From Candidatus Omnitrophica bacterium UBA6253 (GTDB taxonomy: Bacteria > Omnitrophota > Gorgyraeia > Gygaellales > Profunditerraquicolaceae): 64,000 nucleotides of DNA. The notes below the pieces were generated by a model. It made no database searches, was not told the DNA's origin, and saw only the letters and a list, made by a program, of their open reading frames with translations. Positions 29,322 through 52,943 of the stretch are shown one piece after another; positions within the stretch are counted from its first letter, which is position 1, and each line of letters starts with the position of its first letter. The stretch is from NCBI GenBank assembly GCA_002441245.1, contig DJVP01000008.1:106540-170539 (forward strand), written 5' to 3'. A program made the translations under genes and the position numbers.

Positions 29322-29395
29322 TGCCCTGTCGTCTAATGGTAGGACACAAGATTCTGGATCTTGTTGTCATGGTTCGAGTCCATGCGGGGCAACCA
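29322..29395 (+). tRNA. tRNA-Gln (anticodon CUG)
   Basis: Cloverleaf folded by hand: acceptor tgccctg/cggggca, D-arm gtct…ggac, anticodon stem caaga/tcttg with loop ttCTGga, T-arm catgg-ttcgagt-ccatg, discriminator A and encoded CCA. Confidence 0.85.
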
Positions 29396-29402
29396 TATAA
29401 AT

Positions 29403-29427
29403 CTCTCAAATTACAGATAGAGAGATA
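29403..29427. repeat. imperfect palindrome TCTCTC-N11-GAGAGATA immediately 3' of tRNA (candidate attL core)
   Basis: Seen directly. A similar AACTCTCT…AGAGAGATA site lies at 52583-52613. Confidence 0.35.
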
Positions 29428-29702
29428 ATGTAAACCCTGGTTAGCAACGCTAGCTAGGGTATTTTTTATGTCCCCACGTGCCAAAGAGTTAGGGCATTAT
29501 TTTTTCTACCGTTACATTGTAGTTAATTTTAAATTTTAATCCTGGCAAAGGTTCGCTAAAAATAGCCAATCAAATCTCCCCAGCCTATCTCTTTATCTCA
29601 GTATTGGCTATTAGTTTCTCAGATTTAGTGTCGCAGTTATATGGCAATATAATGGGAATTATTGGCTTAAAATTAGGTGAGAAACTGGAAATTAGGCGAT
29701 GA

Positions 29703-31346
29703 CTATTTTTTGCTTTCAATCAGGGTTTGCCACTGGGTCAGCTGTTTATGCCAGTCTACTTCTTTTAGGAGAGGTCGAATCTTAAACTCTGTGAGAGCAT
29801 TAATGACAGGGGTGTTGGAAGAGATGATTCCATTTTGAATCGCAGGACACAAGAAGAGTGTATTCATAACTTGATCCATGCGTGTTACGCTTAAATTAAG
29901 CCACTTACAGGCCTCGCGAGGGTGCTTAAATCTACCTTCATTAACGAACTGTTGGATTTGATGGGCTAAGATAAGCATTTTGCGTACTTGGGGTTCTTTT
30001 TCAATCTCCTCTTCTTTATGCCACTTATTTAAAGGCCGTACTTGTTTTAAATCAACTTCAAATTCAAGCCGTATGTCGCTGTCGTTAAGCATAAGCCCCA
30101 GTTTTTTACTGGTTGAGTCATAGTTAATCTCCTTGACTAACGCTTTAAGGATACGTCGTTTTTCTTCAGGATAAAGGGTATCCCAGATTGGAGATAGAAT
30201 AGCTTCCACTTCTTGTTTATTCGGATGGTCATTTTTCTTGTTGTTATCAATGAATACTTTCTTTAAGCAATCAACTGTAGCATCTTCAATTGCCTGGGCG
30301 TTAACAGATTTAGTTGGGCAAGAGTTATAGCCGCGTTTCTGAGCGTTTGAACAAACATAGTAGCGGTATTTGTGCGTTTTATGCTTTAAGGTATAGGTAT
30401 GGAACATAAAATGTCCGCAGATCTTACAGTGCAGTAAGTGGCTTAATAAGCCAGTACATTCGGTATTTTTGGTTGCTCTACGTTCTATGCGGTTATCTTT
30501 AAGTATTTCTTGGGTTTTTTTAAAGGTTTCTTCATCAATTATTGCCTCCTGTTGGCCGTCATAGATTTGGCCTGCGTAATACACCTTGCCGAGATAGAGG
30601 ACATTAGTAATCATGGAGCGAATATGGGTTATTCCAAACTTAATCCCGCCAAATGTTTTCCCGCCCTTAGAAGTAGCGCGTTTTGTCCTGAAGCCTTTCT
30701 CATTGATAATCTGTGCTACTTTAAGCAGGGAGTTGCCTTTAAGGTAAAGAGCGAAGATTTCACGAATTAACTTGGCATCTTCTTGGTTAACTACCAATTT
30801 TTTCGAGTCTTTCGTTATATCGTAGCCTAACGGCGGCCTGCCCCCCAGCCATTGCCCGCGTTTACGCGCGCTAGACATTTTATCTTTAGTTCTTTCAGAA
30901 ATTAATTCCCTTTCAAACTCGGCAAAGGAAGACAGAATATGCAACATTAGCTTGCCTGTAGAGGTGCTTGTATCAATTGGCTGGGTAATTGAGGCAAAGG
31001 CTACGTTATGTTCTTCAAATAATTTAAGGAGTTGGACAAAATCTGCAAGGCATCTGCTGAGTCGGTCTAATTTATAGGTAACCACCATGTTGACCTTGCC
31101 TGTCTTGATATCATTGATTAGTCTCTGCAGAGAAGGGCGGTTGGTGTTTGAGCCAGTGAATCCGTTATCATCGTATCTTTCGGGTAATGCTATCCAGTCT
31201 TCGTGTTTGTGGCTTGCGATAAAACTTAGGATAGCTTCGTGTTGGTTTTCAATTGATCCGAAGGTCTCATCCGCACGTTCTTCTACTGATTTGCGGCAGT
31301 AGGCTGCGCAGTAGACTCGTTTTTTACCTTCTTTTGTATCTATCAT
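29703..31346 (-). CDS. large serine recombinase (resolvase N-domain + recombinase + zinc-ribbon domains)
   Basis: N-terminal YCRKS…Q catalytic Ser motif with LDRLSR. A Cys cluster C..C…C..C lies in the C-terminal half. Length is 547 aa. Confidence 0.85.
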   Translation of the reverse strand: MIDTKEGKKRVYCAAYCRKSVEERADETFGSIENQHEAILSFIASHKHEDWIALPERYDDNGFTGSNTNRPSLQRLINDIKTGKVNMVVTYKLDRLSRCLADFVQLLKLFEEHNVAFASITQPIDTSTSTGKLMLHILSSFAEFERELISERTKDKMSSARKRGQWLGGRPPLGYDITKDSKKLVVNQEDAKLIREIFALYLKGNSLLKVAQIINEKGFRTKRATSKGGKTFGGIKFGITHIRSMITNVLYLGKVYYAGQIYDGQQEAIIDEETFKKTQEILKDNRIERRATKNTECTGLLSHLLHCKICGHFMFHTYTLKHKTHKYRYYVCSNAQKRGYNSCPTKSVNAQAIEDATVDCLKKVFIDNNKKNDHPNKQEVEAILSPIWDTLYPEEKRRILKALVKEINYDSTSKKLGLMLNDSDIRLEFEVDLKQVRPLNKWHKEEEIEKEPQVRKMLILAHQIQQFVNEGRFKHPREACKWLNLSVTRMDQVMNTLFLCPAIQNGIISSNTPVINALTEFKIRPLLKEVDWHKQLTQWQTLIESKK

Positions 31347-31355
31347 GATATTTTC

Positions 31356-31826
31356 CTACAAATTAAAGAATAAGTAGCCATTCCAGTGCGCTCCGGTTAC
31401 TTCTTTAGCAATAGCCGTGAGGGTCTTATATGTTTTGCTGTTATATTCAAATCCTGTATCCAACACTTTAACTTGAAGTGAAATACCCTTGTATTTCTTA
31501 GTAATAACTGTACCTGGAATTGGTAATCTATTATCCCGGCTAAGGCATTTCTTCTTAGGGCAATTTTCAGTGGCGGCATTAGGTCGAAAAGCTTTGTTAT
31601 TGATCGGATCATATTGTTGGATCAAATGTTGGATTTTACTTTGGGTTTCAGCGGAAATTCCGCCATATTCGAGCTCCTGTATCTTGTAAGCGATTTTACG
31701 CCAGAGAAATACCTTATTGTTAGATGGAGCATTCTTACCATCAAAAACCTCTTCATACCTCTTCTGTAGTTTGTTGAGCGGCAACTCTTTTAGCACCATT
31801 ATTTCGGTTAGGGTATTTTCACTCAT
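31356..31826 (-). CDS. DUF2924-like recombinase-associated protein
   Basis: LQKRYEEVFG…IAYKIQELEYGG pattern. It sits immediately upstream of the serine recombinase, as is common for DUF2924. Confidence 0.55.
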   Translation of the reverse strand: MSENTLTEIMVLKELPLNKLQKRYEEVFDGKNAPSNNKVFLWRKIAYKIQELEYGGISAETQSKIQHLIQQYDPINNKAFRPNAATENCPKKKCLSRDNRLPIPGTVITKKYKGISLQVKVLDTGFEYNSKTYKTLTAIAKEVTGAHWNGYLFFNL

Positions 31827-31977: not shown

Positions 31978-32844
31978 GTGAGTAAATTACTTTTTAAAGA
32001 GCAAAGTATGAAAAAATCGCACGATAGAGACTATTTTTATAAATATGTTACTGCTGATGTAGCAAAGAACATTCTTAATACACTTAAGGTGAGGTGTAGC
32101 TCTCCAGTTCTTTTTAATGACCCTTTTGATAGTCAAATAGAAATTTGGCACAATGCAGAAAGTAAAGAAGATTTTATAAAAAAGAGCACTAAAATTATCT
32201 GTAATGTTTTGCAACCATTGCTAAAGAATAGAGATACTGAGCAGAATCATCAGTTCGTCTATAACGAAATACTAAAAGACAAAGATTTTGTAGATCAGCG
32301 CTATGTAGCTTTTGAAAAAATTTATAAAAGTGTAAATGAACTGATATGTAGTCTTTTAAAAGAAGATAGAATTTTCTGCGTTTCTGAGACAAATGATAAC
32401 CTATTGATGTGGGCTCATTACACCGATAATCACAAGGGGGCAGTAATAAAATTAAAATGTATTCCAGAAAAAGATACGGCTCTTTGCGTAGCAAAACCAG
32501 TACTATATTCAACAAATATGCCTTTATTAAAAGTCGAAGAGTTATTTAACAGTCCACAACAAATATCGCGAAAGATATTAGATGAAATTCTTTTTACCAA
32601 AAGTTTAGATTGGCAGCATGAAAATGAATGGCGAGTAATCCTTATGAAACAACAAGATGGCTGTGATTTTGATATGCGAGGAATATTTGAAGAAGAGCTT
32701 GATACTATTTACTTGGGATGCCGCATATCAGAATCTGATAAAAAAGACATCGCAGAGATTGTACGTACAAAGAGAAAGAATGTAAGAATTTTTTGTGCGC
32801 GAAAAAATGACCATGAATTCAAGCTTGATTTTGAAGAATTATGA
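31978..32844 (+). CDS. DUF2971-like protein
   Basis: N-terminal YKY.…L...LRCSSP.LFNDPFD motif. Confidence 0.5.
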   Translation: MSKLLFKEQSMKKSHDRDYFYKYVTADVAKNILNTLKVRCSSPVLFNDPFDSQIEIWHNAESKEDFIKKSTKIICNVLQPLLKNRDTEQNHQFVYNEILKDKDFVDQRYVAFEKIYKSVNELICSLLKEDRIFCVSETNDNLLMWAHYTDNHKGAVIKLKCIPEKDTALCVAKPVLYSTNMPLLKVEELFNSPQQISRKILDEILFTKSLDWQHENEWRVILMKQQDGCDFDMRGIFEEELDTIYLGCRISESDKKDIAEIVRTKRKNVRIFCARKNDHEFKLDFEEL

Positions 32845-33701
32845 TAGAACCAACAGAAGAATGGTTAATAGCAATAAATGAAAAGTTTCGCAAAGCAGAT
32901 ATTCCTCCAAAAGGAAGACCATTCCTTGCCCTTGAGGCCTTTTCTAAAGAATTTAAGTGTAGCATTATTATACCGTCTGAGACAATAAATACTATTTTTG
33001 AATGGTTTTACAAGAATACCAAAGAGGGATCGCATAGTATGGGGCCTTTATATCGTGGCGTTTATTACTTTGATTCATGTTTTTGGCCTGTCTATATTTT
33101 AGATCAATTCGGACAATGTAAAATTAATGCTTTTGATTCTTTGCAAACCATGCCTATAAACTTTAAAGAGCAAATTAAAGCTGATAAGAAGCAATCGTGG
33201 GATTTCTTTTTATTATGGGTTAATTGTTTAGATTATGCTTGGGGATATGAAGATATTATCGTGAAAAAGAAATTTCAAGGCCTATCTTTAAACTTTATTA
33301 AAAGCGCAGATAAAGAATTACGAGCCGCCGCCTCTTTATTATTGCAAGAAACCCCCGAAGTTAAAGCAATTGAGAGTGCAAGGATGGCGGTAGAGATGTT
33401 TCTCAAGGCAGTGCTGATTATAGCGAATAACTGGGGCGAAGATGAGATAAAAAAGAAAATAGGTCACAATCTTGTTAGGGCCGCGCAAGAAGCGTTTAAT
33501 AGCACGCAGAGTCAGGAAATTAAAGCGATAGAAAAATATCTCTCGATTTACCCTGAGATTCACGAAAGATACTCCGGAAAGGATTGGAAAGCCAGAGACC
33601 TCTGGAAAGGATATTGTATTGTTCAAGCTGTTGCTGCGACTTTTACACGATTATATTCTGAGAGAGATGCAAGGCAGCAGGTTTTTCGAAAAGGAGATTA
33701 G
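32841..33701 (+). CDS. hypothetical protein (island cargo)
   Basis: ORF translationally coupled to the previous gene; no family recognised. Confidence 0.5.
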   Translation: MIEPTEEWLIAINEKFRKADIPPKGRPFLALEAFSKEFKCSIIIPSETINTIFEWFYKNTKEGSHSMGPLYRGVYYFDSCFWPVYILDQFGQCKINAFDSLQTMPINFKEQIKADKKQSWDFFLLWVNCLDYAWGYEDIIVKKKFQGLSLNFIKSADKELRAAASLLLQETPEVKAIESARMAVEMFLKAVLIIANNWGEDEIKKKIGHNLVRAAQEAFNSTQSQEIKAIEKYLSIYPEIHERYSGKDWKARDLWKGYCIVQAVAATFTRLYSERDARQQVFRKGD

Positions 33702-33747
33702 GTATATAAATCTAGGTTAAATAATATGTTAAAAGGGAGGTAGAAAG

Positions 33748-34074
33748 ATGTCAGGATTTAAAATGGAAGGTTTTGACGAATTTAATAAGAAGTTAAATAA
33801 TCTACAGCAAAATATTGAAAACCTCAAAGGTGAACAGGAGGTTTCATTCAATGAACTTTTTACGCAGGATTTTATGAAAAAGAATAGCCGCTTCAAATCT
33901 CTTGAGGACATGTTTAAACAAAGTGGTTTTGTTATTAATTCTCAAGAAGATTTTAAGAAAATACCAGATGAGGAATGGGGTAATTTTATCACTAGCAATA
34001 CAAAATTTAAGAATTGGGAAGAGATGTATGGTGCTGCTATAAATGAATGGTTAAAAATTAAGTTAGGTTTGTAA
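33748..34074 (+). CDS. hypothetical small acidic protein
   Basis: RBS GGGAGG present; 108 aa. Confidence 0.45.
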   Translation: MSGFKMEGFDEFNKKLNNLQQNIENLKGEQEVSFNELFTQDFMKKNSRFKSLEDMFKQSGFVINSQEDFKKIPDEEWGNFITSNTKFKNWEEMYGAAINEWLKIKLGL

Positions 34075-34215
34075 AATAGGTGATTTGTGGATGCAATACA
34101 AAACCCCAAATTTGTCGAAAGAATATAAAGAATTCTAAAAATGTATAAGAAAATATAAAAAAGCATAAAATTGTATAATCCTCGTCGATAAGCAAAAAAA
34201 TATTTATTTTGCCCC

Positions 34216-34244
34216 TTGAAATCTCAAGAAAAACTGTGTATACT
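34216..34244 (+). promoter_or_regulatory. near-consensus promoter TTGAAA-17-TATACT
   Basis: Seen directly, about 250 nt upstream of the ParB/methylase gene. Confidence 0.5.
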
Positions 34245-34249
34245 TTTAC

Positions 34250-34407
34250 TGTAATTTGATCTTTCTCTCGTATAGACTTAAGACTAAAACCACAACGGAA
34301 AGACTCTTGAATAACTAGACCGTTGGGTGTAGCTTGAGGAATTGATTTTCTCGGAGGCGGCTACTGATAGCTTTGTGACGGACACGGCTATCGGGGCCGC
34401 TTTTTTT
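34250..34407 (+). ncRNA. candidate small RNA / leader transcript (promoter to intrinsic terminator, ~150 nt)
   Basis: Bounded by the promoter at 34216-34244 and a strong terminator at 34357-34407. The terminator hairpin is GCGGC-tact-GATAGC…GCTATC-gggg-GCCGC, followed by TTTTTTT. No ORF lies between. Confidence 0.4.
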
Positions 34408-34500
34408 GTTTTTCGGAGGTAAAACCACAGAAAGGAGGTTCGATATTAGCATTGATTTTAAGAAAAAGCAAACTTAACCTATTAAAACAAGGAGATTAAC

Positions 34501-35766
34501 ATGAAAAGAATAAAGATGGTGATTGAAGAACTTAAATATGCACCCTACAACCCGCGCACTATGAGAAAAGCAGTCTTTGAAAGACTCAAAGAAAACATCA
34601 GGTCTTTTAAAGTCTACTCACCGCTTATCGTCAATACGCAGACTAATCATGTTGTTGGTGGTAACCAGCGCTTGCGGGCACTACGTGAGCTCGGCTATAA
34701 GGAGGTAGACGTAGTTTTGGTTGATCTTCCGCTCGATAAGGAGATGTCTCTCAATTTAGCTTTAAACAAGCTGGTTGGAGAATTTGACAATCCAGCTCTG
34801 CCGGTGATCTTTCAAGAGCTTATGAAAGACCAGGAGCTACTTAGTTTAAGCGGCTTTGAGCTCCCTGAGGTTTTTAGCCTCATAGACATGCACACCATGC
34901 ATCCTGATGAGGACTTTGATCTTGAGAAAGAGATTTCAGAGATTGAAAAACCCATAACCGCTCCAGGCGATCTGGTAGAGCTTGGGCCCCACAAAATAAT
35001 CTGCTCAGACACAGCCAAGAAGGATACCTTGGACAGGCTACTTGGTGATGAAAAAATTGCGCTTCTGCATATGGATCTACCATATGGTTGCGTTTATAAT
35101 TCTTGCAACCGGCCAAAGTCTCCTCAGAAGAGGAAACAAAAAGCTATGTGGAAGCCCATCGAAAATGATGATTTGGTAGGTGAAGAGTATTTAAAATGGT
35201 TCAGGGAAGTGGTTATAACGGCCAAGCCGTTTCTTATTGATGGCGCTCCGGGTTATTTCTGGGGTGGATTCCGTAACTTTGGCATGATGACGCAGGTTTT
35301 GGAGGAAGAAGGATTTTACGTTGCCAATGTGATAACAGGGGTTAAGCCTAGAGCCTGTCCGGGATTCGGGGATTATAACTTTGCCTCGGAATTCTTGTTG
35401 TATGCATGGCTTAAGGGCAACGGCCAGCATCGCTGGTTTGGTCCCAAAAATGAGACCAATGTCTGGGAATTTAACCGCGATGAAGCTTCTGGACGCCTGC
35501 ACCCTACGGCAAAACCTGTATCTCTTGCCCGCCGCATCCTGGCTAACAGCAGTCAAAAAAATAACATCGTATTTGATGGTTGTACTGGTGCCGGATTTAA
35601 CCTTATCGCCTGCCAACAAATGGGAAGAATATTCCGGGGATGCGAGATTGAACCTTTGTATCTGGATATCTGCATTAAAAGGTACATCCGCGCTTTCGGC
35701 ATGAATTCGGTTTCACCGGAAGTGAGGCAAAAGTATTTTGGAGGAGGCAACCATGGCAAAAAATAA
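34501..35766 (+). CDS. ParB-like nuclease N-domain fused to N6/N4 DNA methyltransferase
   Basis: N-terminal ParB-N-like segment. LHMDLPYG (DPPY-like motif IV) and the C-terminal HPTAKP motif are characteristic of N4/N6 methylases. Confidence 0.7.
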   Translation: MKRIKMVIEELKYAPYNPRTMRKAVFERLKENIRSFKVYSPLIVNTQTNHVVGGNQRLRALRELGYKEVDVVLVDLPLDKEMSLNLALNKLVGEFDNPALPVIFQELMKDQELLSLSGFELPEVFSLIDMHTMHPDEDFDLEKEISEIEKPITAPGDLVELGPHKIICSDTAKKDTLDRLLGDEKIALLHMDLPYGCVYNSCNRPKSPQKRKQKAMWKPIENDDLVGEEYLKWFREVVITAKPFLIDGAPGYFWGGFRNFGMMTQVLEEEGFYVANVITGVKPRACPGFGDYNFASEFLLYAWLKGNGQHRWFGPKNETNVWEFNRDEASGRLHPTAKPVSLARRILANSSQKNNIVFDGCTGAGFNLIACQQMGRIFRGCEIEPLYLDICIKRYIRAFGMNSVSPEVRQKYFGGGNHGKK

Positions 35767-36394
35767 AAATCCCTCTGAAAAACCCACAGCCTTCTACATC
35801 CAGGGCATTCAGAGTGGCACAGTTAGGGTTTCGAGCCTTCCTGTCGAAACAATTGAGGAAATTGTTGCTGTTCTGTACGCTGAAGGGTCTTCTGTGTCTC
35901 AGATAGCCCAACTCTTAAATAAATCAGATCGCACTGTGTACAGATATCTTGAAGAAATCCGCAGGAAGAACGCTCTTACGCCAAGCTTAAAACAGGCCCA
36001 GGAGTTTATGGGCGAACTGGTTCAAAAGGCAAGGTCAAGCCATTCATATCTTATGCGGCTTGCCCGTTCAAAGGACGGTTCAATTTCCGAGAAAACCCAG
36101 GCTGAATTTGCCGCCTGGAGAATAATCAAGGAGCTAACCGAGAAACTTCAGAGTCTCGGACTCTTGCCGCTAAAAGAGCAGGCTCTCACAGGGGATTTCT
36201 TTCACCACTTTTCTACCTCGGATGGACAGGCGATGTGTGATGAGATAAAGAATAGCATCAAGGATATTGAAGTCATTGCCAGCCAAACCGGCGGAATCGC
36301 ACCAGATGATCAGGAGAAGATAAAGAAAATCCAGTCAGAAATTGAAAATTTTGAGAAGGGAGTAACCCAGGAACAGGAGGATAAAAATGAATAA
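35738..36394 (+). CDS. terminase small-subunit-like DNA-binding protein (HTH)
   Basis: HTH VSQIAQLLNKSDRTVYRYLEE. It lies immediately upstream of terL and overlaps it. Confidence 0.5.
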   Translation: MEEATMAKNKNPSEKPTAFYIQGIQSGTVRVSSLPVETIEEIVAVLYAEGSSVSQIAQLLNKSDRTVYRYLEEIRRKNALTPSLKQAQEFMGELVQKARSSHSYLMRLARSKDGSISEKTQAEFAAWRIIKELTEKLQSLGLLPLKEQALTGDFFHHFSTSDGQAMCDEIKNSIKDIEVIASQTGGIAPDDQEKIKKIQSEIENFEKGVTQEQEDKNE

Positions 36395-38054
36395 TACCCA
36401 ACTATATCAAATAAAAAACGAGGCAATAAAGTTACGGCGCTATTTTGGAAAGAACTTTGAGTCTTTTAGAAAATATTATTTTCCACTTTACCATTCTATT
36501 CCCGATGCGCCATTCCACCGGGATATAGGAGCGTTATTAGCGGAAGCATCCAGGAAGCGCGGGTTTCGTATTGCCTTAGCTGCTCCGCGTAACAGTGCTA
36601 AAAGCACCATTGTGTCCCTTGAGTTTGTAGCTTATTGTATTTGCTACCACTTGGAAGAGTTTGTAGTGATTATTTCCAACACTAAGGAACAGGCTGAGAG
36701 TTTCCTAACCAATATCAAGTTTGAGCTTGAGACTAACCCTCGCCTTAAGGAGGATTTTCCTGATGTTTGCGAAATAGGCGAAAAACCAAAGCCGCCACGC
36801 TGGAGACAGGATGACATTATCACCAAAAATGGCATCGAAGTTCTTGCGCTTGGCTATAACCAGCAGATCAGGAGCCGTAAGTACAAACAATCACGGCCGA
36901 GCCTGATCATTCTTGATGACCTTGAGGCGGGTAATGCTATTCAGTCTGCCGAAAACTTCGAAAGACTTTACGATTATCTTACCCGGTCAGTATTGAAATC
37001 CGGCACAAACGCAACCAATGTAGTCTTTCTTGGGACAATCCACAATTACGGTTCACTCTTGGCGCAATTTACAAGTTCCGACGCACATCCCGGCTGGGAA
37101 AAGCGCATCTATCGTTCGATCATATCGTGGTCTGTGCATCCTGAGCTGTGGGAGAAATGGGAAAGGATATATAGTTGCCAAGATGCCTTTGAAGGGAACG
37201 AAGGGCCTGAAGCGGCGCTAAAGTTCTTTGAGCAAAACAAAGCCCCAATGCTTGAGGGGACTCAAGTTCTTTGGGAAACAAAGTACAGTTATTATGAGCT
37301 TATGGTTATGCGTTTAGAGGAAGGAACAGCAAGTTTTGACAGTGAAATGCAGAATGAGCCAGTAAATCCCAGGGATCGGATATTTGATGTTGATAGTTAC
37401 GGTTATTTAGAGGATAAACATTCTAGTACAGAAAATCTACTGGTAAATTTAGGCGAAAAGAAGAGGATATATGGCGGTTGCGACCCTAGTCTTGGAAAAG
37501 AGAGCAAAAGGAGCGATTATGCTGCTATTGTAACCGTAGTAAAAGACACTGAAAAAGGAACTCTTTATGTTGTTGACGCGGACGTGGCGAAGCGTAAACC
37601 CGATAACATAATTGAGACGATTATGTCGTACCATAAGATACGCGGTTACATGAAGTTCGGGGTTGAGACGAACCAGTATCAGGAGTTTCTTGCTACTGAG
37701 TTGAAAAGGCGTAGTGAGTTAGCGCAGATTTATGTGCCAGTTGTGGGTATTACGAATACCACGGATAAGCTGGGGCGCTTTCAATCGCTTCAGCCTCTCT
37801 TTGCCAGTGGGGTAATCCAACTTAGCAGGAGACTCCATATTCTGCTTGAACAAATGAAGCATTGTCCGAAAGGCGCGCACGATGATGCCTTGGATGCTTT
37901 GTATCTAGCTGTAAAATTGGCTCTGGAGGACAATCACTTTCAGTTTTGGTTTGCCGGTGATGGCAATAAACCACCTTATAATCCCGATATATATCCGGAT
38001 GCAACCGGAAGAACACCTTATGGCTGGTATTCTTGGCACAGGCGATCTTACTAG
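36387..38054 (+). CDS. terL: phage terminase large subunit
   Basis: ATPase Walker-A-like AAPRNSAKST and Walker B IILDDLE. C-terminal RNaseH-like nuclease region (GCDPS…DYAAIV…VDAD). Confidence 0.8.
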   Translation: MNNTQLYQIKNEAIKLRRYFGKNFESFRKYYFPLYHSIPDAPFHRDIGALLAEASRKRGFRIALAAPRNSAKSTIVSLEFVAYCICYHLEEFVVIISNTKEQAESFLTNIKFELETNPRLKEDFPDVCEIGEKPKPPRWRQDDIITKNGIEVLALGYNQQIRSRKYKQSRPSLIILDDLEAGNAIQSAENFERLYDYLTRSVLKSGTNATNVVFLGTIHNYGSLLAQFTSSDAHPGWEKRIYRSIISWSVHPELWEKWERIYSCQDAFEGNEGPEAALKFFEQNKAPMLEGTQVLWETKYSYYELMVMRLEEGTASFDSEMQNEPVNPRDRIFDVDSYGYLEDKHSSTENLLVNLGEKKRIYGGCDPSLGKESKRSDYAAIVTVVKDTEKGTLYVVDADVAKRKPDNIIETIMSYHKIRGYMKFGVETNQYQEFLATELKRRSELAQIYVPVVGITNTTDKLGRFQSLQPLFASGVIQLSRRLHILLEQMKHCPKGAHDDALDALYLAVKLALEDNHFQFWFAGDGNKPPYNPDIYPDATGRTPYGWYSWHRRSY

Positions 38055-38119: not shown

Positions 38120-38335
38120 TTATTTGAAATTCAACAACTTTGGTAGGGAGGTATTGAACGCTTTGGCTAATTTTTGTAAGGTGTTTAAGGTGGGCGAAGA
38201 AGGCCTCTTGCTCTCAAGACGCTGAATATATTTGTATTCTAACTCAGCCAAATAAGCAAGTTCCTCCTGGGTTATCTTCTTTTTTCTGCGTAGTTCTTTT
38301 AAGCGTTTCCCAAATGCGATATTGATATTTTCCAT
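38120..38335 (-). CDS. XRE-family helix-turn-helix transcriptional regulator
   Basis: ITQEELAYLAELEYKYIQRLE HTH; 71 aa. Divergent from the defence-like operon. Confidence 0.8.
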   Translation of the reverse strand: MENINIAFGKRLKELRRKKKITQEELAYLAELEYKYIQRLESKRPSSPTLNTLQKLAKAFNTSLPKLLNFK

Positions 38336-44097: not shown

Positions 44098-44106
44098 GAG
44101 GCAGAC

Positions 44107-45054: not shown

Positions 45055-45163
45055 TAGATTTGAAATATAGCTATCTAGAAGAAAGTCATGTGGACTTTTT
45101 CTCCACAAGACAAATGAAATAAAGATTCTTCGTTTATTTTTATTTAAAACGAAAGGAATTACG

Positions 45164-45712: not shown

Positions 45713-46393
45713 GTGAAATTAATAAAGATGAAGAAATGCCCTTTTTGCGCTGAAGAAATCCAAGAAGAAGCCATTAAGTGTCGCTATTGTGGCGAGTTTT
45801 TAGATCAAAGATCTCTCCAGGAAGCCTCAGTAATTAAGAAAACCGACCGGCAAGTCTTTAATGAAAAGGAAGTAGCTGATTATTTGCGCGTACCAGCAAA
45901 AACAATAAGTGGCTGGGTTAAGCGTAAAGCCATGCCTTTCTCACAGCTTTCAAAGAATAGGATTATCTTTCGTAAAGGGGTTATAGATAAATGGATTTCA
46001 GAGAATAACATAACTGAATATCAAAGGTTTGTTTTTGATAAGAAGACTATAGATGATCTCCTACCAACTGCCTATAAACCTGTTACAGAAGATGAAATGT
46101 TAATGGATTATGTCAGAGAGCTTAGAGAGAAGTATATCCTTAAGCATTGTAAGAGGTATGGCGTAAACGAAGAGGAACATGCAAGGGGCTTAAAAAAGGC
46201 ATTTTCTACTTTATCCACAAGAGCGCCAGATAAGACAAGGATTAAATTCGAGTGGGATTTCAGGAAAAGGAAATATCTTCTTGCAGAAGGCGAGGAAGCG
46301 TATAAGCACTATTTAAAGAAAGATAAAGGATTTGATGGCGCCTTGTTTGAAATGACAGTGCTTATGCAGTATTTATGTGCTTGTTATAAGTGA
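45713..46393 (+). CDS. zinc-ribbon + excisionase/MerR-like HTH DNA-binding protein
   Basis: CPFCAEE…CRYCGEF zinc ribbon, then an HTH_17-like segment KEVADYLRVPAKTISGWVKRKAMPF. Confidence 0.55.
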   Translation: MKLIKMKKCPFCAEEIQEEAIKCRYCGEFLDQRSLQEASVIKKTDRQVFNEKEVADYLRVPAKTISGWVKRKAMPFSQLSKNRIIFRKGVIDKWISENNITEYQRFVFDKKTIDDLLPTAYKPVTEDEMLMDYVRELREKYILKHCKRYGVNEEEHARGLKKAFSTLSTRAPDKTRIKFEWDFRKRKYLLAEGEEAYKHYLKKDKGFDGALFEMTVLMQYLCACYK

Positions 46394-46502: not shown

Positions 46503-47381
46503 ATGCCTAAAAAACGCCAAGCCTTTAAACATAATATCGTTGCGATAATCTATGATTTTGATGGGACTCTAACTGAGAAGCCCATGCAAGAATATACCGT
46601 CCTTCCAAAGATTGGCATACCTGCAAAGAAATTCTGGGATACAGTGAACGAAGAAACAAAAAAGACGAAAGGCGAGCAGATAGTTACTTACATGCGATTG
46701 ATGCTGAAATACGCCGATAATAAAGACATAGCTATCAAGCCTGCAGATTTTCGTAAGCTCGCAAAAAACATAAAATATTATCCTGGAGTAGAAAAATTCT
46801 TTGAAAGGATCAATAAATTTGTTGATTCCTTATCAAACGGTAAGGTTGAATTAAGACATTATATTATTTCTGCAGGATTGAAAGAAATCCTTAACGGTAT
46901 CCCATTTAAAAATAAATTTCATAATATCTTTGCTTCTGAATATCATTATGATAAGTATTACCATGCTGATTTTCCCAAAATTATAGTGAATGATACCCTA
47001 AAAACACAGTTTATTTTTAGAATTAATAAAGGAAGAGAAAAAATGCATGAAAGCATAAATACACATATGTCTCATCTTGATCGCGCCATTCCTTTCCGAA
47101 ATATGTTGTATATTGGAGATGGAGAAAGTGATGTTCCCTGTATGACAGTTATAAAGAAAGAGGGGGGATATGCTATAGCCGTTTGTAAAAAAGGAAGTTC
47201 CAAGGGGATAAATAAGGCAAAAGATTTATTAAAGGCAGAGAGAGTAGATTTTATAACTAGAGCAGATTATAGTAAAAATAGCGAATTAGAAAAAATAGTT
47301 AAGATTATTTTGCGTAATATTGTTGAGGGAATAACATTTAGGAAAGAAATTTTTAAACAATATCTTACTTATATAGCATAA
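46503..47381 (+). CDS. HAD-superfamily hydrolase/phosphatase
   Basis: Motif I IYDFDGTLT and motif IV IGDGESD. Confidence 0.7.
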   Translation: MPKKRQAFKHNIVAIIYDFDGTLTEKPMQEYTVLPKIGIPAKKFWDTVNEETKKTKGEQIVTYMRLMLKYADNKDIAIKPADFRKLAKNIKYYPGVEKFFERINKFVDSLSNGKVELRHYIISAGLKEILNGIPFKNKFHNIFASEYHYDKYYHADFPKIIVNDTLKTQFIFRINKGREKMHESINTHMSHLDRAIPFRNMLYIGDGESDVPCMTVIKKEGGYAIAVCKKGSSKGINKAKDLLKAERVDFITRADYSKNSELEKIVKIILRNIVEGITFRKEIFKQYLTYIA

Positions 47382-47393
47382 GGAGAATTAACT

Positions 47394-47555
47394 ATGAATA
47401 AGAATGCGAATTCAGATTCTAGGGGTTCGGTTTCGACAAAGAGGGAAAATGCAAAATCTTCAGAACACTCTCAATCTAAAAAAACCGAAGACGCTTATTT
47501 TAATTCTTCAAGAGGAGAACCAGCCCAAGTAACAGCTGCATCTTATAACAGATAG
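47394..47555 (+). CDS. small hydrophilic protein (53 aa)
   Basis: Good RBS AAGGAGA 7 nt upstream of the ATG. The product is low-complexity and Ser/Lys/Glu-rich. Confidence 0.3.
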   Translation: MNKNANSDSRGSVSTKRENAKSSEHSQSKKTEDAYFNSSRGEPAQVTAASYNR

Positions 47556-47594
47556 CCAGAGGTCAGTATTCTTAAGCCAAGGAAAGGGGGCTGT

Positions 47595-48227
47595 ATGTAT
47601 CGCAGGATTAAAATGGGGATTATTATGATAGTTGCAGCTTTATCATTAGCAGGTTGTTGTAAAGTCATTCCTTGTATGCCTTGGTGTCCTCCTCCTGAGC
47701 CTCCCAAGCCTACTCCTCCACAGATTGAAGCTAGGCTGGCAATTATGAGAAACCGGGAAGTGGCAGAATCGAAAGTTTTGGCAATTAAGGAAAGGTTTAA
47801 AGGTAAAGAAACAGAAGCAGCTTATGTCGAAGCCAGCGATCTATACGCCAAAGCTATGAGTGAGAATAATGCTTGGCTGTCAGTGCTTACCACGAGTATA
47901 GAAAACAACGAGAATTTGGAAGGCATAAAGTCTTACGAAAAGCAGTCAATAGTAGCGACCGATGCTACAGAAGCCTTCGTGAAATATGGAAAAGAAATAT
48001 TGGTTGGGAAACCAAGTACGGGTATAGTAGCGGCCAACCTTCCATCAAAGGGTTTGGAGTTATCGCCTATCGGTGATTTTATAACGGCACTTGTGAATAA
48101 TGGGATAACTATATATAAAGAGTATGTGGCTTTGCAAGCCCAACAGAGAAAAAATAAAGCAGAGGTTATTAGGAAAGAATTAATCTGGAAGATGTGGACA
48201 GATATTAAGCAGGCAGGAGCTAAATAG
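47595..48227 (+). CDS. lipoprotein (lipobox LAGC) with Pro-rich linker
   Basis: Signal peptide plus Cys lipobox; no family recognised. Confidence 0.55.
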   Translation: MYRRIKMGIIMIVAALSLAGCCKVIPCMPWCPPPEPPKPTPPQIEARLAIMRNREVAESKVLAIKERFKGKETEAAYVEASDLYAKAMSENNAWLSVLTTSIENNENLEGIKSYEKQSIVATDATEAFVKYGKEILVGKPSTGIVAANLPSKGLELSPIGDFITALVNNGITIYKEYVALQAQQRKNKAEVIRKELIWKMWTDIKQAGAK

Positions 48228-48471
48228 CTTTATTGTAGCTTAGGCTAGATTATGATTATAGCTAAAAGTAGGTAATATAGCGGTGCAGCTTGATGAGATA
48301 AGTCTGCCACTCTAATGTAACATCAACCTTCGTTGGCCTTTATGTGGCTGGCGAAGGTTTTTGTTTTTAGGTCTGGTCATTATACTGTTTTCAGAAAACA
48401 ATATTATTTGCAACTCTGTTTGATTCTATAATAGAAGAAATACAACTTTTTGTGATGTAGGGAGAAAGACA

Positions 48472-49860
48472 ATGACCAAGATTATTATATGTCTTTTTAT
48501 TACTGTAGGTACGTTAACATTTATTGTTAGCGATGCCCCATCTATTTATGGGCAAACATATTCGGATACTGGTTATGGGGATTATCCTTGCCCAAGATGT
48601 GGAAAATACACACCCTATACTCCGACCAGCCATCCTGCGTACTGTAAATGGTGCGGCGCACCTCTTTTTGGTTCATCCGAAAGTTCTAACTCATCTGAAA
48701 ATTATGAAAATAGTTACATTTCTTATGTCCTGAGAAATAAGATATTGGGACTTGATATTTTTGATGTGCAAAGTGATTTGCAAACCTCGCGCAATGATGA
48801 AATGGTTGCACGGCGTTCAATGGAAGAGTGGAAAGAGGCAGCAGAGAGTTCATCAAAATTATTAGCTCAACGTAAGAGTGCCTTGTCAAAGAAAGATTCT
48901 AAGGATCGGGAAGAAATTTCAAACGAAATGGATCGTAATAGGAAGCTGCTATCAAGATTGTCTGCCCTACAAAAGCTTTTAGAAGGTTTAACCGTGGATA
49001 CTGCTTCGCTTGTACCGGGCACCGAGATAAGATTTCTTTGCGCTCCTAGATTAGATGATGAGATGATTTCTAAAGGAATAAATCCCGTTTTTTTTGTTAA
49101 TCCCTCAATATGCAAGCAATTCTTCCGTTATCGGGATATCCTTCGAAAGAGAATAGAAGAAAATACTAAACTAATGCATCAGTTTTATTGGGATATTGAT
49201 ATACAACAAAGAGATATGCTTTACGCTCGTATAAATAAAATACAACTCTTTCGTGATTTTGGGTCAATTGCATTAAAGATGTTAACAGACCCTATGGCTG
49301 AATTAGAAAAATATGGCTTTCCTCCAGAAAAGCTGAAGCAATTAAATGAGGCTTTTATCTCAGCGAACCTTATATTTTCCGAAGTCGGAACTATTGCAGC
49401 ACCAAATGATAAAGAAGCGAAAGACAAGGTTCGCGATTGTCTCAAGCATATGATTAATGCCGGAATAGTTTTGAAATCTGGTAAGTCTTCACCTGAATTG
49501 GAAAAAATAAATAATGCAGCGTGGGGTCTTCTAAAGCTTGATGCTGATTCTAAGGGGCTTATTTTTCAAGATGACAAAAAAGTTATGAAGGTGATTGAGG
49601 ATAAGCTTGACATGGGGGGAATCTTCTACCGGCCTATTTATATAGTCTCCGGTTTTGTTGGCTTAACTCGATTACGAGAAGACTATGTTGATTTAAGCTA
49701 TCAATCAGAATATATAGAAAAAACGATGGGGCGTGATTTGGATTGTCTGAAGCTTACTAGACGGTTGTTATCAGATGATCAGTCTTACATGGACGAGGTT
49801 GAAAGGATGATTGGTTTATGTGACTATGCAAAATGTGGCGTAGAGGAAACTACTAAATGA
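48472..49860 (+). CDS. membrane-anchored double zinc-ribbon protein with coiled-coil/helical C-terminal domain
   Basis: N-terminal TM segment, then CPRCG…CKWCG. Confidence 0.5.
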   Translation: MTKIIICLFITVGTLTFIVSDAPSIYGQTYSDTGYGDYPCPRCGKYTPYTPTSHPAYCKWCGAPLFGSSESSNSSENYENSYISYVLRNKILGLDIFDVQSDLQTSRNDEMVARRSMEEWKEAAESSSKLLAQRKSALSKKDSKDREEISNEMDRNRKLLSRLSALQKLLEGLTVDTASLVPGTEIRFLCAPRLDDEMISKGINPVFFVNPSICKQFFRYRDILRKRIEENTKLMHQFYWDIDIQQRDMLYARINKIQLFRDFGSIALKMLTDPMAELEKYGFPPEKLKQLNEAFISANLIFSEVGTIAAPNDKEAKDKVRDCLKHMINAGIVLKSGKSSPELEKINNAAWGLLKLDADSKGLIFQDDKKVMKVIEDKLDMGGIFYRPIYIVSGFVGLTRLREDYVDLSYQSEYIEKTMGRDLDCLKLTRRLLSDDQSYMDEVERMIGLCDYAKCGVEETTK

Positions 49861-52520
49861 AGAAGACTCTCTTAATGATCCTCCGATATGGCATATTGAT
49901 GGCAATGGTGATGGTTAACTCTGGTTGTGCCATTGCTCGTTATATTATGAATACTCAAAGGATAAATTCACAGGATAGGAAGAATCAGCTATATTCTGAA
50001 GCATATCAGTATCGGCAGCAATATGAAAATAATCAGAAAGAATTGCGTTTAATCGATCATGACGCTGCTTTGCCATCCACAAAGATTATGTATCATAATG
50101 AGAATGTTGTTCTAGAGGATAATATACATAAATTAGAGGATAAGATAGATAAGTTACAGATTAAATTGGCTGAGGCTGAACGAATGAGGGGGAATGGTCT
50201 TAGTATTTTTGGCAAGACGTTATCTGAAGAAGGTTTTAAGAAAGTCTTATCTGAGCGAGTGTTTTTGAACAATCTAGAGAAAGAGTGTGAAAAAAAGCAA
50301 AGAGAACTTTCTGCAAGGTCATCAAATCCGGAAGAGCTCGCTCGTTACGAAGAGATTATTCGTTGCGAAGCGTTGGTGGACTTGATTGTGGAAGCGTTAG
50401 ATACATTCGAGATTCCTTTGAAGGAAAAAGATCTTAAGCGATCTGTTTTAAATAATCAAGGATGTCAAGACTTAAGTCGGTTATACGATTGCTATGAGAA
50501 TGTTAGGAATCTTTCAGCCTATGCAGAAGGGGGAAGTGAATTTGCTAATCTCTATAAGGCGGCCAAGGATTTACTAGAGCCTAGTAAACAGACAGAGGTA
50601 GTTTTAATCCAGGGGGAACTCTTGCAGGCCGTAGCCGATCTTTCTGCCGCCGGCGAAAAAATTTGCCATAAGTTAAAACTATTATTAAGTACTCAAAAAG
50701 TAGAGAGAAGCGATAATAACGGGATGCTAGATATTAATCCTATTCCTGCCACGATGGTTTTGGAGAGCGCGGCTGGTGAAGAAAGCTCGCTTTGGGCTTT
50801 ACGGTATCGGTTGACAATACAAAATATTATGATGTCTATGGCATGGTGTTTAGGCAAAGATTGGTCAGCTGATTCTTATCTTCACAAGCAGGCAAGCAAA
50901 ATCCAGGAAGCCAAATTGGCGAATCGAAAGATTATTGAAGGGTATCATGAAAAAATACAGGCTAATGTTCGACCGTTAGCATTGACAACAAGATTTTTAA
51001 GACAACCATCAGGCGTAGCATATGGGGGTCGGTTCAAATATTTTAATGGCTCCGTTTATGTTTACGGTATAAGCGGTGTAAAAAATGAATATGAATTTAC
51101 TAAAATAATTGCAAAGTATAATATTCTTTCGAAGAATAAAGGCGTCTCGCCGATGTGGATTGCAAAGTTATCTGAATTAGATCGGTCATGGGGCATTGAT
51201 TGTATTAGCGTTGCGCATGATGGTTTATATTTGGCGACTCTAGTCGATACTGGTGGCCATAAATATGACAAGTGGTTGTTAGCAAAGTATCCTTTTGGTA
51301 CTAAATTTAATTGTTCCGTTAATAAGGAATGGTCTCGTTATATTCTGGAATATCGAAAAACTTTAGCATATTCTAATATTAATAGTAGTCTAATGGGTTT
51401 AATGGTTGTTAATGAGAATAATATTGATTATGTCTATGTGGTTGGAGGCAAACAGGGTTCATTTTGTATTTCGAAAGTTGCTGGTGATGGTACGGTTGTA
51501 TGGGAGCGTATGAATCCAGAGGGTTCAGGATATGGTATTGCGATTATGGATGGAGCTGTTTATACGGGGGGTGTTTCTTCTTGTCACCCTTATTTGCAAA
51601 AATATGATACCAATGGTTCACTGATTTGGGCACGCACGAGCGATCCTTTAGGATATTATGAGAGCTTGATAGTTATGGGGAAAACGATTTATGCTGTAGG
51701 CAAGAATGGTCTTGCTAAATCCGATTTATTAATAGAAAAATGGGATGAAAATGGCAATAAAATCTGGTCCCGTATATATGATTGTAATTATAATTACAAT
51801 CATTCTGGGGGAGCAATAAATGTAAATGGACATTTGTTTATTTTGTCTTCTATGGAATCAGTGATAATAGGTGGTAAAATATTTCTTATAGAGATTGATC
51901 CTGAAATTGGGGAAATACTTTCTGTAACATCTTGCGGTGAAGGTATCGCTACGCTGGATGCAGGTGATGAACACCTCTACATTATGCTAACTAGGAATGA
52001 CGGTAAAACGATAATCTTAGAATATCCCTTACAGGCTTCGCTGGGCAAGAACGATGAAAAGAATTCCCCAATCCAGAAATATAAGCGTAATGAGAGTATG
52101 TTGGTTAAATCTGATCAGAATAATATCTTCACAGAATCTACTAATTTAGGATCCATTTTATCCACCGTTACTAAAGGATTAATCTCATCTACAGAAAGCG
52201 ACGTATTTTATGATACTAATCTGAATATGGAAGAAACGGCAAATGAATATATTTTTAAGATGAATATTGTAGGCTTGGACAAAAATAAAGTTCGTGTGAA
52301 AATTAATGGAAGTTCAATTACTGTAACTGGAAACTATTCTAGTAAGACAGAACAAAAAAATCCGTGGAGTATTTATAGTTCACAGACAACCAGTTCTTTT
52401 ACGAAAACAGTTTCATTACCGGAAAATGCCAATCTCAAGAATATTAAATCGGAAACCAAAGGCGATACATATATTATTCATATTGGTAAAAAAGTCATTG
52501 GGAGTTTTCGGCAGATATAA
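49857..52520 (+). CDS. lipoprotein with coiled coil, beta-propeller (PQQ-like repeats) and C-terminal Hsp20/alpha-crystallin-like domain
   Basis: Lipobox NSGC. Repeated …G.V.W / …G..IW.R. strands (VVWERM, SLIWART, NKIWSRIY). The C-terminus FKMNIVGLDKNKVRVKINGSSITVTG is Hsp20-like. Confidence 0.55.
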   Translation: MKKTLLMILRYGILMAMVMVNSGCAIARYIMNTQRINSQDRKNQLYSEAYQYRQQYENNQKELRLIDHDAALPSTKIMYHNENVVLEDNIHKLEDKIDKLQIKLAEAERMRGNGLSIFGKTLSEEGFKKVLSERVFLNNLEKECEKKQRELSARSSNPEELARYEEIIRCEALVDLIVEALDTFEIPLKEKDLKRSVLNNQGCQDLSRLYDCYENVRNLSAYAEGGSEFANLYKAAKDLLEPSKQTEVVLIQGELLQAVADLSAAGEKICHKLKLLLSTQKVERSDNNGMLDINPIPATMVLESAAGEESSLWALRYRLTIQNIMMSMAWCLGKDWSADSYLHKQASKIQEAKLANRKIIEGYHEKIQANVRPLALTTRFLRQPSGVAYGGRFKYFNGSVYVYGISGVKNEYEFTKIIAKYNILSKNKGVSPMWIAKLSELDRSWGIDCISVAHDGLYLATLVDTGGHKYDKWLLAKYPFGTKFNCSVNKEWSRYILEYRKTLAYSNINSSLMGLMVVNENNIDYVYVVGGKQGSFCISKVAGDGTVVWERMNPEGSGYGIAIMDGAVYTGGVSSCHPYLQKYDTNGSLIWARTSDPLGYYESLIVMGKTIYAVGKNGLAKSDLLIEKWDENGNKIWSRIYDCNYNYNHSGGAINVNGHLFILSSMESVIIGGKIFLIEIDPEIGEILSVTSCGEGIATLDAGDEHLYIMLTRNDGKTIILEYPLQASLGKNDEKNSPIQKYKRNESMLVKSDQNNIFTESTNLGSILSTVTKGLISSTESDVFYDTNLNMEETANEYIFKMNIVGLDKNKVRVKINGSSITVTGNYSSKTEQKNPWSIYSSQTTSSFTKTVSLPENANLKNIKSETKGDTYIIHIGKKVIGSFRQI

Positions 52521-52582
52521 AAATATACTCGCAGTTTTATTCATATTATCAGATGTCACCTATCTTGGAGATGGCATCGGTT

Positions 52583-52613
52583 AACTCTCTGTTTATCAAT
52601 AAGTTAGAGAGAT
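52583..52613. repeat. AACTCTCT-N15-AGAGAGATA imperfect palindrome (candidate attR core)
   Basis: Shares the 9-mer AGAGAGATA and its CTCTC partner with the site at 29403-29427. Confidence 0.3.
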
Positions 52614-52833
52614 ATGTCTCTAAGAAAAGGTGACAAAAGTGACATTAAATCTATCTCTTATAGCCTATAACTTCTTGATATTTGCTTAATTTCCTATATA
52701 ATTAGCCTGTGCGTATTGAGAGATATTGTTATTACCTATAGCTTCGCGCGCAACCAGTTTAAACCTTGATTATTAACACTAGTCAGGGTATTTTTTTATA
52801 TGCTGATGTGCCAATTAACATGTACTATTTGGT

Positions 52834-52862
52834 TTGGAATTGTGACGAAAATGTTATATAAT
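52834..52862 (+). promoter_or_regulatory. promoter TTGGAA-17-TATAAT upstream of moxR operon
   Basis: Seen directly. Confidence 0.45.
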
Positions 52863-52943
52863 ACAAAGTAATATTTTCCGATGAGTTATTAATAGGCTTG
52901 ATTTGCTATCCTGCACAGAGCGGGTAAATTAAGGAGGCAGCTG

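Follow-up and report, generated by a model that had tools for sequence, protein, structure and literature searches.

Why would a chromosomal island carry the terminase with which a phage packages its DNA and none of the genes for a phage particle? This question is raised by a stretch of 64,000 nucleotides from Candidatus Omnitrophica bacterium UBA6253 (GenBank assembly GCA_002441245.1, contig DJVP01000008.1, positions 106,540 to 170,539 of the forward strand), which is called the window here and is numbered from its first letter. A first-pass annotation, made from the letters alone, had described a tRNA-Gln-associated island at 29322-52943 with a large serine recombinase and a packaging module, and had likened it to phage satellites of the phage-inducible chromosomal island (PICI) type or, alternatively, to a decayed prophage retained as a defence island. 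The limits of the element were determined by comparison with empty sites of the same species, and its packaging genes were followed through related loci in several phyla. With confidence and doubt in about equal measure, we read the element as a helper-dependent, self-packaging, satellite-like defence island, and it is the packaging role that we infer. The integrase, DUF2924 and Xre genes described below lie on the minus strand; all other features are given for the plus strand.

Junctions, ends and mobility of the element

An exact look-up of the MoxR and YggT proteins in public assemblies identified many occupied copies of the integration site together with an empty contig from ENA (L008), in which moxR directly follows tRNA-Gln. 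A second empty contig (L125) was found by scanning JGI metagenomes for the 3' end of the tRNA. Both empty contigs belong to the same species as the window, lack the element, and match the window up to position 29401 and again from position 52750; for L008, the identity was 99.7% on the left side and 99.85% from 52750 onward. In these alignments the sole sequence common to both junctions is GCAACCA, which forms the left crossover core (attL, 29389-29395) as the last 7 nt of tRNA-Gln, and the right crossover core (attR, 52750-52756), from which the sequence is identical to the empty site. The element thus delimited by the alignments comprises 23,361 bp at 29396-52756. The island is indeed discrete and associated with tRNA-Gln, as the first-pass annotation had it, with limits inside the 29322-52943 assigned there; the comparison with relatives lacking the insertion, proposed in the same annotation, is what fixed the exact junctions.

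The target is the single tRNA detected, tRNA-Gln (anticodon CTG, 29322-29395; ARAGORN, and Rfam tRNA at 61 bits), which is left intact by the insertion into its last 7 nt. A gene for a class Ic aminoacyl-tRNA synthetase of the Glu/Gln type (tRNA-synt_1c and Anticodon_2, 25959-27251) lies approximately 2 kb upstream of it. In the empty site, attB reads ...CATGCGGG-GCAACCA-GTTTAAACC..., and in the occupied chromosome attL reads ...CATGCGGG-GCAACCA-TATAAATCTCTC... and attR ...GCTTCGCGC-GCAACCA-GTTTAAACC..., from which attP was reconstructed as ...CTATAGCTTCGCGC-GCAACCA-TATAAATCTCTC.... Serine integrases need a short shared core of this kind. A terminator-like direct repeat (29431-29467 versus 52760-52796, 81%) was also considered as the junction and discarded: the inverted repeat that separates CCA from the left terminator copy does not occur in the empty site.

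Short palindromes with the 9-mer AGAGAGATA had been put forward as att cores. They do exist near both ends (29419-29427 and 52606-52614), and the 9-mer occurs four times in the window versus 0.77 expected, a count reached in one of 100 shuffles. The empty-site alignment rules them out as cores and boundaries, as the crossover falls at GCAACCA and the junctions do not coincide with AGAGAGATA. Judged by its conservation, the left palindrome is evidently a real feature of the P' arm. It consists of the inverted repeat ATCTCTC (29401-29407)-N12-GAGAGAT (29420-29426), starts 5 nt inside from the core, and belongs to a conserved non-coding left end (P' side of attP, 29396-29702) that also contains an intrinsic terminator. 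A terminator scan placed this replacement terminator for tRNA-Gln at 29434-29467, and its stem is marked by covariation with compensatory changes. The succession of inverted repeat, terminator hairpin and TATTTTTTATGTGTCGATGTGTCAA after the CCA of tRNA-Gln was found in approximately 20 metagenome contigs of related species, six of which have an integrase gene about 300 bp downstream; more distant versions keep an ATCTC/GAGAT palindrome with altered spacing.

At the other side, the conserved non-coding right end (P side of attP, 52573-52749) is a segment of about 170-190 bp that is approximately 99% shared with a variant island (L005) and is also common to two of the mini-derivatives described below (L132 and L133). 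The right palindrome (52583-52613) lies 136-167 bp inside the right end, at the inner edge of the non-coding segment, and its 9-mer is not conserved in the variants, where it is replaced by TATAGAGATA (L005) and TAGATATATA (L133). The right end further holds a GTGACA direct repeat (52630-52644) and a GAGAGAT copy at 52718-52724. This 7-mer is enriched in the window (16 copies versus 8.6 expected), with four copies within approximately 230 bp around attP, and may serve as an accessory site. At 52630-52663, the direct repeat GTGACAAAAGTGACA is followed by ATTAAATCTATCTCT, which resembles the core-adjacent P'-arm sequence ATTAAATCTCTC; this stretch may be a site for an accessory protein or a pseudo-att site.

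The large serine recombinase and the DUF2924 protein had been placed beside the 3' end of the tRNA, and both assignments held. The integrase (29703-31346, minus strand), whose stop codon is 307 bp from the end of tRNA-Gln, matched the Pfam domains Resolvase (4e-39), Recombinase (7e-17) and Zn_ribbon_recom (1e-12), all three above cut-off, as well as the phrog_95 integrase profile (4e-114), and its N-terminus (AAYCRKS...SIENQ) shows the YxRxS nucleophile motif. Its nearest phage relatives are gp31 of Wolbachia phage WO (31%) and a protein of AcaML1 (36%). The DUF2924 gene (31356-31826, minus strand; Pfam 3e-38) lies 9 nt upstream in the same operon. A DUF2924 gene adjoins the integrase in eleven related loci (L029, L030, L043, L045, L068, L074, L082, L083, L088, L108 and L163), and its product is a candidate accessory or directionality factor.

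Occupied and empty sites coexist at >99% identity of the flanks, a polymorphism that points to excision of the element, and occupied copies were found in at least three metagenome-assembled genomes and several metagenomes. In JGI metagenome 3300037067, tRNA-Gln is occupied by a variant island whose left end and integrase are 97% identical to those of the window (L015). Its right end is the same, and the zinc-ribbon/HTH_17 gene beside it (L005) has 85% nucleotide identity, though the genes flanking this gene differ. The cargo of L005/L015 comprises DUF3800, LpoB, DUF1425, CsgG and tetratricopeptide repeat (TPR) genes and thus differs from that of the window. A relative (L020/L025), with a TerL 89% identical, is also inserted at tRNA-Gln (L142, contig Ga0172381_10000017). 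In three further loci, host-like genes are found right after TerL (L161-L163), which suggests elements as small as approximately 9 kb; the TerS protein of L161/L162 is identical to that of L163, with different cargo upstream.

The tRNA-Gln site of related species is also occupied by integrase-less mini-elements of 1.5-4.3 kb (L132, 2727-4278; L133, 4.3 kb; L141, 2437-4558). The left end of approximately 300 bp is kept in all three, and L132 and L133 also retain the right end of about 120-190 bp. The mini-elements may be non-autonomous derivatives open to mobilisation in trans. In another contig (L129, 6901-7388), two tRNA-Gln 3' ends occur 464 bp apart. The P'-arm-like palindrome and terminator after the first differ from those after the second, and a serine integrase gene comes after the second. 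This arrangement suggests stacked or tandem insertions at one site.

The packaging genes and their relatives

The ParB/methylase-TerS-TerL module assigned to the region after the integrase was recovered with Pfam and PHROGs, with weak matches for TerS. Its three genes overlap one another as an operon. The first encodes a fusion of ParB_N and N6_N4_Mtase domains (34501-35766; Pfam; phrog_498, 2e-88). As the terminase of true phages with portals is closely preceded by homologues of this ParB-methylase, the trio appears, on sequence grounds, to be a phage-derived unit. The methylase also matched PADLOC type II methyltransferase models (2e-64). The second gene, which overlaps both of its neighbours, codes for a TerS-like protein (35738-36394) with an N-terminal helix-turn-helix (HTH) and a long helical hairpin. 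Its matches to Terminase_5 (E 0.002) and to the phrog_7067 TerS profile (E 0.001) were weak. The AlphaFold2 model (predicted local distance difference test score, pLDDT, 82) is all-alpha, and fold searches against PDB and BFVD gave weak TerS matches, e.g. to G20c TerS at E 0.08.

The third gene, TerL (36387-38054; phrog_38, E 1e-89; Terminase_6C), belongs to a Mu-like clade. The first-pass annotation had asked for the phage family of TerL: its closest phage counterparts, at 36-37% identity, belong to transposable Mu-like phages (Mushu, DMS3/MP38 and Ralstonia phages), and the similarity to phage TerLs spans the full length of the protein. Across 18 homologues, no variation was seen in the Walker A and Walker B motifs or the nuclease aspartates. 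Between the window and L020, the ratio of nonsynonymous to synonymous substitutions (dN/dS) was 0.14 for TerL, which is evidently under purifying selection, and 0.085 for the TerS-like protein. Sequence searches of the PDB with TerS, TerL and the DUF8426 protein described below gave nothing informative.

No portal, capsid, protease, tail or lysis family was found in any open reading frame (ORF) of the island with Pfam and PHROGs. Portal and capsid hidden Markov models (HMMs) from the nearest true phages were run over the whole window and 1.16 Mb of family loci without a hit at E ≤ 1, and in a six-frame HMM search of the delimited 23.4-kb element no virion gene remained beside the terminase. 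In the control, the portal gene comes immediately after TerL in Firmicutes prophages and in IMG/VR phages whose TerLs are 36-39% identical. The earlier statement that portal, capsid and tail genes are missing is thereby borne out. The element also has no conjugation genes and no recognised replication genes, and therefore the terminase set is its only recognisable transfer-related function.

A genome scan with a TerL profile yielded 80 loci, approximately 60 of which share the trio of ParB-methylase, TerS and TerL. The hosts belong to Omnitrophota, Planctomycetota/Phycisphaerae, Elusimicrobiota, Goldbacteria and Zixibacteria, and the ParB-methylase and TerS homologues are directly upstream of TerL in about all non-Firmicutes loci. 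The conserved clusters were TerL (62 loci), the ParB-methylase (50, in each directly upstream of TerS/TerL), TerS (37), integrase (28), Xre (13) and DUF2924 (8), and all-against-all clustering of the ORFs revealed no further gene family in more than five loci. In Omnitrophota and Elusimicrobiota the integrase carries its DUF2924 partner; in many Planctomycetota a serine integrase directly follows TerL on the same strand. In a neighbour-joining tree of TerL, the 60 trio-linked loci and four upstream-truncated ones form one clade (bootstrap 85/100), with 47 phage and prophage TerLs outside it. Pfam annotation of seven family contexts showed restriction-modification, Dnd/Ssp-like, cyclic oligonucleotide-based antiphage signalling system (CBASS), TIR, OLD/Gabija-like, nSTAND, HEPN-AbiU2 and metallo-β-lactamase (MBL) genes on either side; virion genes were absent from all seven.

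Several genomes hold two to three copies. On the Planctomycetota contig CAVXOA010000001.1, three TerL loci (L048, L050 and L056) lie at 272, 338 and 399 kb, i.e. approximately 60 kb apart, and a same-strand serine recombinase gene immediately follows each TerL. The full trio is present in L048 and L050; for L056, detection was limited to TerS and TerL. A distant family member of 7.6 kb from IMG/VR (L164, IMGVR_UViG_3300045256_000490) has the order ParB-methylase, TerS, TerL, serine integrase and an MBL-fold gene of the 6A-MBL defence system, the last 50% identical to that of the window. As a source of complete-phage relatives IMG/VR was discarded, the best TerL there being ≤39% identical and L164 the single family member present. 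In the searchable literature, which leaves out most subscription journals, no described family with a terminase-trio backbone was found. As a whole, the family is coherent and broad, and it seems to have gone unrecognised.

Cargo slots, regulators and leader cassettes

The remaining genes fall into three cargo slots between backbone genes, and the GC content varies in a mosaic manner from 32 to 46% across the island. The cargo had been called defence-like with lipoproteins, a description confirmed by PADLOC, NCBIfam and lipobox matches. Cargo slot 1 (31978-34074), the contents of which differ in L020, L108, L161 and L163, comprises a DUF2971 protein that is a PDC-S31 defence candidate (31978-32844; PADLOC, 5e-48), a 286-aa protein to which no family was assigned (32841-33701) and a phrog_2211-like 108-aa protein (33748-34074; PHROGs).

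Downstream of the trio and the Xre gene, a DUF8426 protein (Pfam PF28530, 38462-39514) combines a YTH/EVE-like reader with a PD-(D/E)xK nuclease domain. Its AlphaFold2 model (pLDDT 94) retrieved YTHDF2 (E 6e-4, probability 1.0), the McrB N-terminal domain and the HsdR nuclease in Foldseek searches, and residues D247 and E266-x-K268 are invariant across homologues, which number in the hundreds and include proteins of Nitrospira and Thiorhodococcus. The preceding gene is Xre/control-protein-like, and an N6/N4 methylase is present on the same element. The DUF8426 protein is likely a modification-dependent (type IV-like) restriction enzyme, as predicted from its modelled fold; the YTH and PD-(D/E)xK folds rule it out as a hidden virion or replication gene.

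It is followed by the two genes of the 6A-MBL system, encoded side by side at 39691-43038 and both above the NCBIfam equivalog cut-offs: an MBL-fold protein (39691-40797; NF058524, 410 bits versus a cut-off of 220) and a Cap2/Cap3-like E2-E1-JAB fusion (40810-43038; NF058523, 588 bits versus 320; Pfam Prok-E2_A, ThiF and Prok-JAB), which matched Cap2 structures at 1e-10. A CBASS assignment of the fusion gene was rejected, as there is no cyclase and NCBIfam assigns the pair to 6A-MBL. With its MBL-fold gene carried by L164, the system is also found on a distant family member. It has been listed among the known jumbo-phage defences (bioRxiv 10.1101/2025.09.30.679545). Here, a patatin-like phospholipase (43066-44097; Pfam Patatin, 9e-14) and a second MBL-fold protein (44107-45054; Pfam Lactamase_B) follow directly after the pair, at 43066-45054, and then a 179-aa protein without an assigned family (45164-45703). 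In this region (43066-45703), PADLOC gave LmuA-like (5e-36) and PDC-M48B (4e-31) matches.

Cargo slot 3 (46503-52520) begins with a HAD-family PDC-S34 defence candidate (46503-47381; PADLOC, 2e-95), followed by a 210-aa lipoprotein (47595-48227), a secreted or membrane protein of 462 aa (48472-49860) and an 887-aa lipoprotein with a C-terminal Hsp20 domain (49857-52520; Pfam HSP20). The lipoboxes of the 210-aa and 887-aa proteins are LAGC and NSGC, respectively. In variant L005, LpoB, DUF1425, CsgG and TPR genes are found in this slot instead. In L020, the backbone order (ParB-methylase, TerS, TerL, Xre, DUF8426 and, further on, the zinc-ribbon/HTH_17 gene) is kept, and the slots contain an E2_E/ThiF system, a helicase, a 1277-aa nSTAND protein and a PRTase.

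Two regulators belong to the backbone. The Xre-type HTH protein (38120-38335, minus strand), encoded divergently from the next gene, matched PHROGs transcriptional regulators and the PADLOC capH and control-protein models. Its gene recurs just after TerL in L020, L105, L107, L075, L076 and L080, and it could be the repressor of the element or a control protein. The zinc-ribbon protein with an HTH_17 domain of the excisionase/MerR type (45713-46393; Pfam HTH_17 and Zn_ribbon) is encoded between cargo slots 2 and 3. It shares 77% amino acid identity with its counterpart in L020 at a dN/dS of 0.077 and is a candidate regulator or directionality factor.

A promoter and terminator scan showed one arrangement in front of three plus-strand operons (the trio, 6A-MBL and the genes for the 462-aa and 887-aa proteins): a promoter-like site with a small hairpin and a strong intrinsic terminator. 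These cassettes span 34322-34412, 39576-39668 and 48278-48366, share the hairpin motif GGTG[CT]AG[CT]T[CT]GA[AGT]G at 34326, 39580 and 48282, and have fold z-scores of -4.5 to -5.1. The leader of the packaging operon (34140-34500; motif GGTGTAGCTTGAGG at 34326-34339, z-score -5.1) is 82% identical to that of L020 although it is non-coding. The second cassette (39515-39690; motif at 39580-39593, z-score -4.7) lies at the edge of cargo slot 2, and its identity to L020 (39577-39673 versus 13231-13329) is 93%, above that of the flanking genes. The third (48225-48400; motif at 48282-48295) lies within cargo slot 3. Rfam gave no match for the leader cassettes, and the motif was rejected as a family-wide signal, being confined to a close subfamily. 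The shared architecture suggests a conditional read-through mechanism (antitermination leader) or a common operator.

Functions proposed for the packaging genes

In the reading that we favour, the large serine recombinase inserted the 23,361-bp element into the last 7 nt (GCAACCA) of tRNA-Gln(CUG), to which the element furnishes a new terminator. Its backbone consists of the integrase with DUF2924, the phage-derived packaging set and the Xre and zinc-ribbon/HTH_17 regulators. Between these genes, the three exchangeable slots hold PDC-S31, the YTH-PD-(D/E)xK nuclease, 6A-MBL, the patatin and MBL proteins, PDC-S34 and the lipoproteins. Conditional expression of the operons would be the task of the three promoter-leader-terminator cassettes. 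Such an element would be unable to build particles of its own; after excision, its TerS and TerL would load the element DNA into the procapsids of a helper phage, and the satellite-like element would in this way spread defence genes. More tentatively, as a proposal we hold a little less probable than its opposite, the trio-linked loci would represent a single-clade, multi-phylum group of satellites with a complete terminase (TerS and TerL) and a methylase and without capsid, portal and replication genes; they would be the first satellites to be proposed for Omnitrophota and Planctomycetota and would act in these phyla as the main vehicle of defence exchange.

Several observations weigh against self-packaging with the aid of a helper. 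No primase, helicase or Rep family was found in any ORF with Pfam, PHROGs or NCBIfam, and hence no replication module; no pac site was recognised in the element, and no helper phage was identified. The assignment of TerS is inferential, drawn from position, size and the HTH, with weak fold matches. An integrase is within range in only 11 of the 25 loci with full 10-kb flanks, and L164 is the only member of the family in IMG/VR, a result that gives no support for encapsidation. An excised circle was not observed, and the reconstructed attP junction had zero matches in the assembled JGI metagenome contigs. For attP and attB alike, dyad symmetry is weak (at best 10-11 of 24 positions, not clearly above chance); the CA centre within GCAACCA is among the top-ranked dyad candidates for both. 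Finally, a methylase beside an ATPase-nuclease in defence islands fits a defence or addiction module as well.

Such a module would act in a restriction-modification-like manner, with the methylase marking self and the terminase-derived ATPase-nuclease cutting unmarked DNA, or as a decoy terminase that sabotages phage packaging, and the integrase would merely move the island. The trio is always embedded among defence genes, methylase and nuclease-ATPase strictly co-occur, the methylase matches the PADLOC type II models, and no evidence of replication, a helper or a pac site was found. We nevertheless consider it unlikely, because TerL, the integrase and DUF2924 match no PADLOC model, TerL keeps its full-length similarity to phage proteins and all catalytic motifs, and the order of methylase and terminase is the same in true phages with portals; moreover, the trio is the conserved backbone around which the true defence systems are swapped. 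Another alternative is the decayed prophage of the first-pass annotation, in which head, tail and lysis genes would have been deleted or replaced and the terminase left over in an island retained for defence. Every backbone gene has phage homologues, the integrase-DUF2924 pairing occurs in Wolbachia phage WO as well, and the GC content is mosaic. Decay is disfavoured to the point of being improbable by the recurrence of the cut-off right after TerL in approximately 60 virion-less loci from several phyla with one TerL clade, by dN/dS values of 0.08-0.14 indicative of purifying selection, by invariant catalytic residues, by presence/absence polymorphism and cargo exchange among near-identical hosts, and by the host-like genes after TerL in L161-L163, where elements may measure only about 9 kb.

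The latter loci also bear on packaging in situ, as in Mu-like phages or lateral transduction, by which headful packaging would start from a pac site near terS and run into neighbouring DNA, so that mainly adjacent cargo and host genes would be mobilised into helper capsids, in place of an entire excised element. Mu-like phages package integrated DNA from the chromosome, and the TerL of the element is nearest to theirs; the lack of identified replication genes and the position of defence cargo downstream of TerL in the direction of transcription agree with this mode. The precise junctions and the conserved integrase, however, point to transfer of the whole unit, and in L161-L163, where TerL is apparently the last gene, rightward packaging would carry host DNA only; we give this mode a slim chance.

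Returning to the helper-dependent, satellite-like reading, the comparison with PICIs in the first-pass annotation is reasonable as far as a satellite is concerned and applies to PICIs proper only loosely. Like PICIs (SaPIs, EcCICFT073), the element is a site-specific island without virion and lysis genes, with a putative packaging-specificity gene (TerS-like), Xre and excisionase-HTH regulators and defence or accessory cargo, and several copies per genome are possible. PICIs by definition lack TerL (PMC10085698), whereas a full TerL is encoded here and no primase-replicase or capsid-morphogenesis gene was found. Furthermore, the integrase is a serine instead of a tyrosine recombinase, the size is 23 kb versus a PICI median of approximately 9.5 kb, and the hosts are Omnitrophota and Planctomycetota instead of Proteobacteria or Firmicutes. 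Capsid-forming PICIs (cfPICIs), for which capsid, portal, protease and head-tail adaptor/connector genes are the defining set (PMC10085698), encode both TerS and TerL; the element resembles them in its TerL and putative TerS and in needing a helper for the rest of the particle, as the gene content would imply here; unlike in cfPICIs, no capsid, portal, protease or adaptor/connector gene was found.

The element further shares with Mu-like phages (Mushu and the DMS3/MP38/D3112 group) a TerL of 36-37% identity, and with Wolbachia phage WO an integrase 31% identical to gp31 over 96-98% of its length, a small gene also being present upstream of the WO integrase. These phages are complete, with portal, MuF, protease and capsid genes after TerL, whereas genes for a transposase, portal, capsid, tail and lysis are all missing from the element. 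A backbone between variable defence slots, a recombinase at one end and insertion at a tRNA are features it has in common with P4-like satellites, pipolins and SCCmec-linked serine-recombinase islands; its backbone is the terminase trio, unlike those of P4 (Psu/Sid/primase), pipolins (PolB) and SCCmec (Ccr alone).

With attB, attL and attR known to the nucleotide, the integrase can be tested directly, and as a serine integrase that targets the conserved end of tRNA-Gln it may be of use as a tool. To our knowledge, known phage satellites encode no terminase, TerS only or a whole capsid-plus-terminase set. If the satellite-like reading is correct, the lineage of methylase, TerS, TerL and serine integrase would represent a new satellite architecture and a new way of exploiting a helper, with the element's own motor and a stolen shell; if the trio is a terminase-derived defence module instead, that would be new as well. 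The trio beside a serine integrase would, on the former reading, be a simple genetic marker for defence cargo, and it would point to a route for the movement of defence systems in Omnitrophota, Planctomycetota and Elusimicrobiota, whose mobile elements seem little described.

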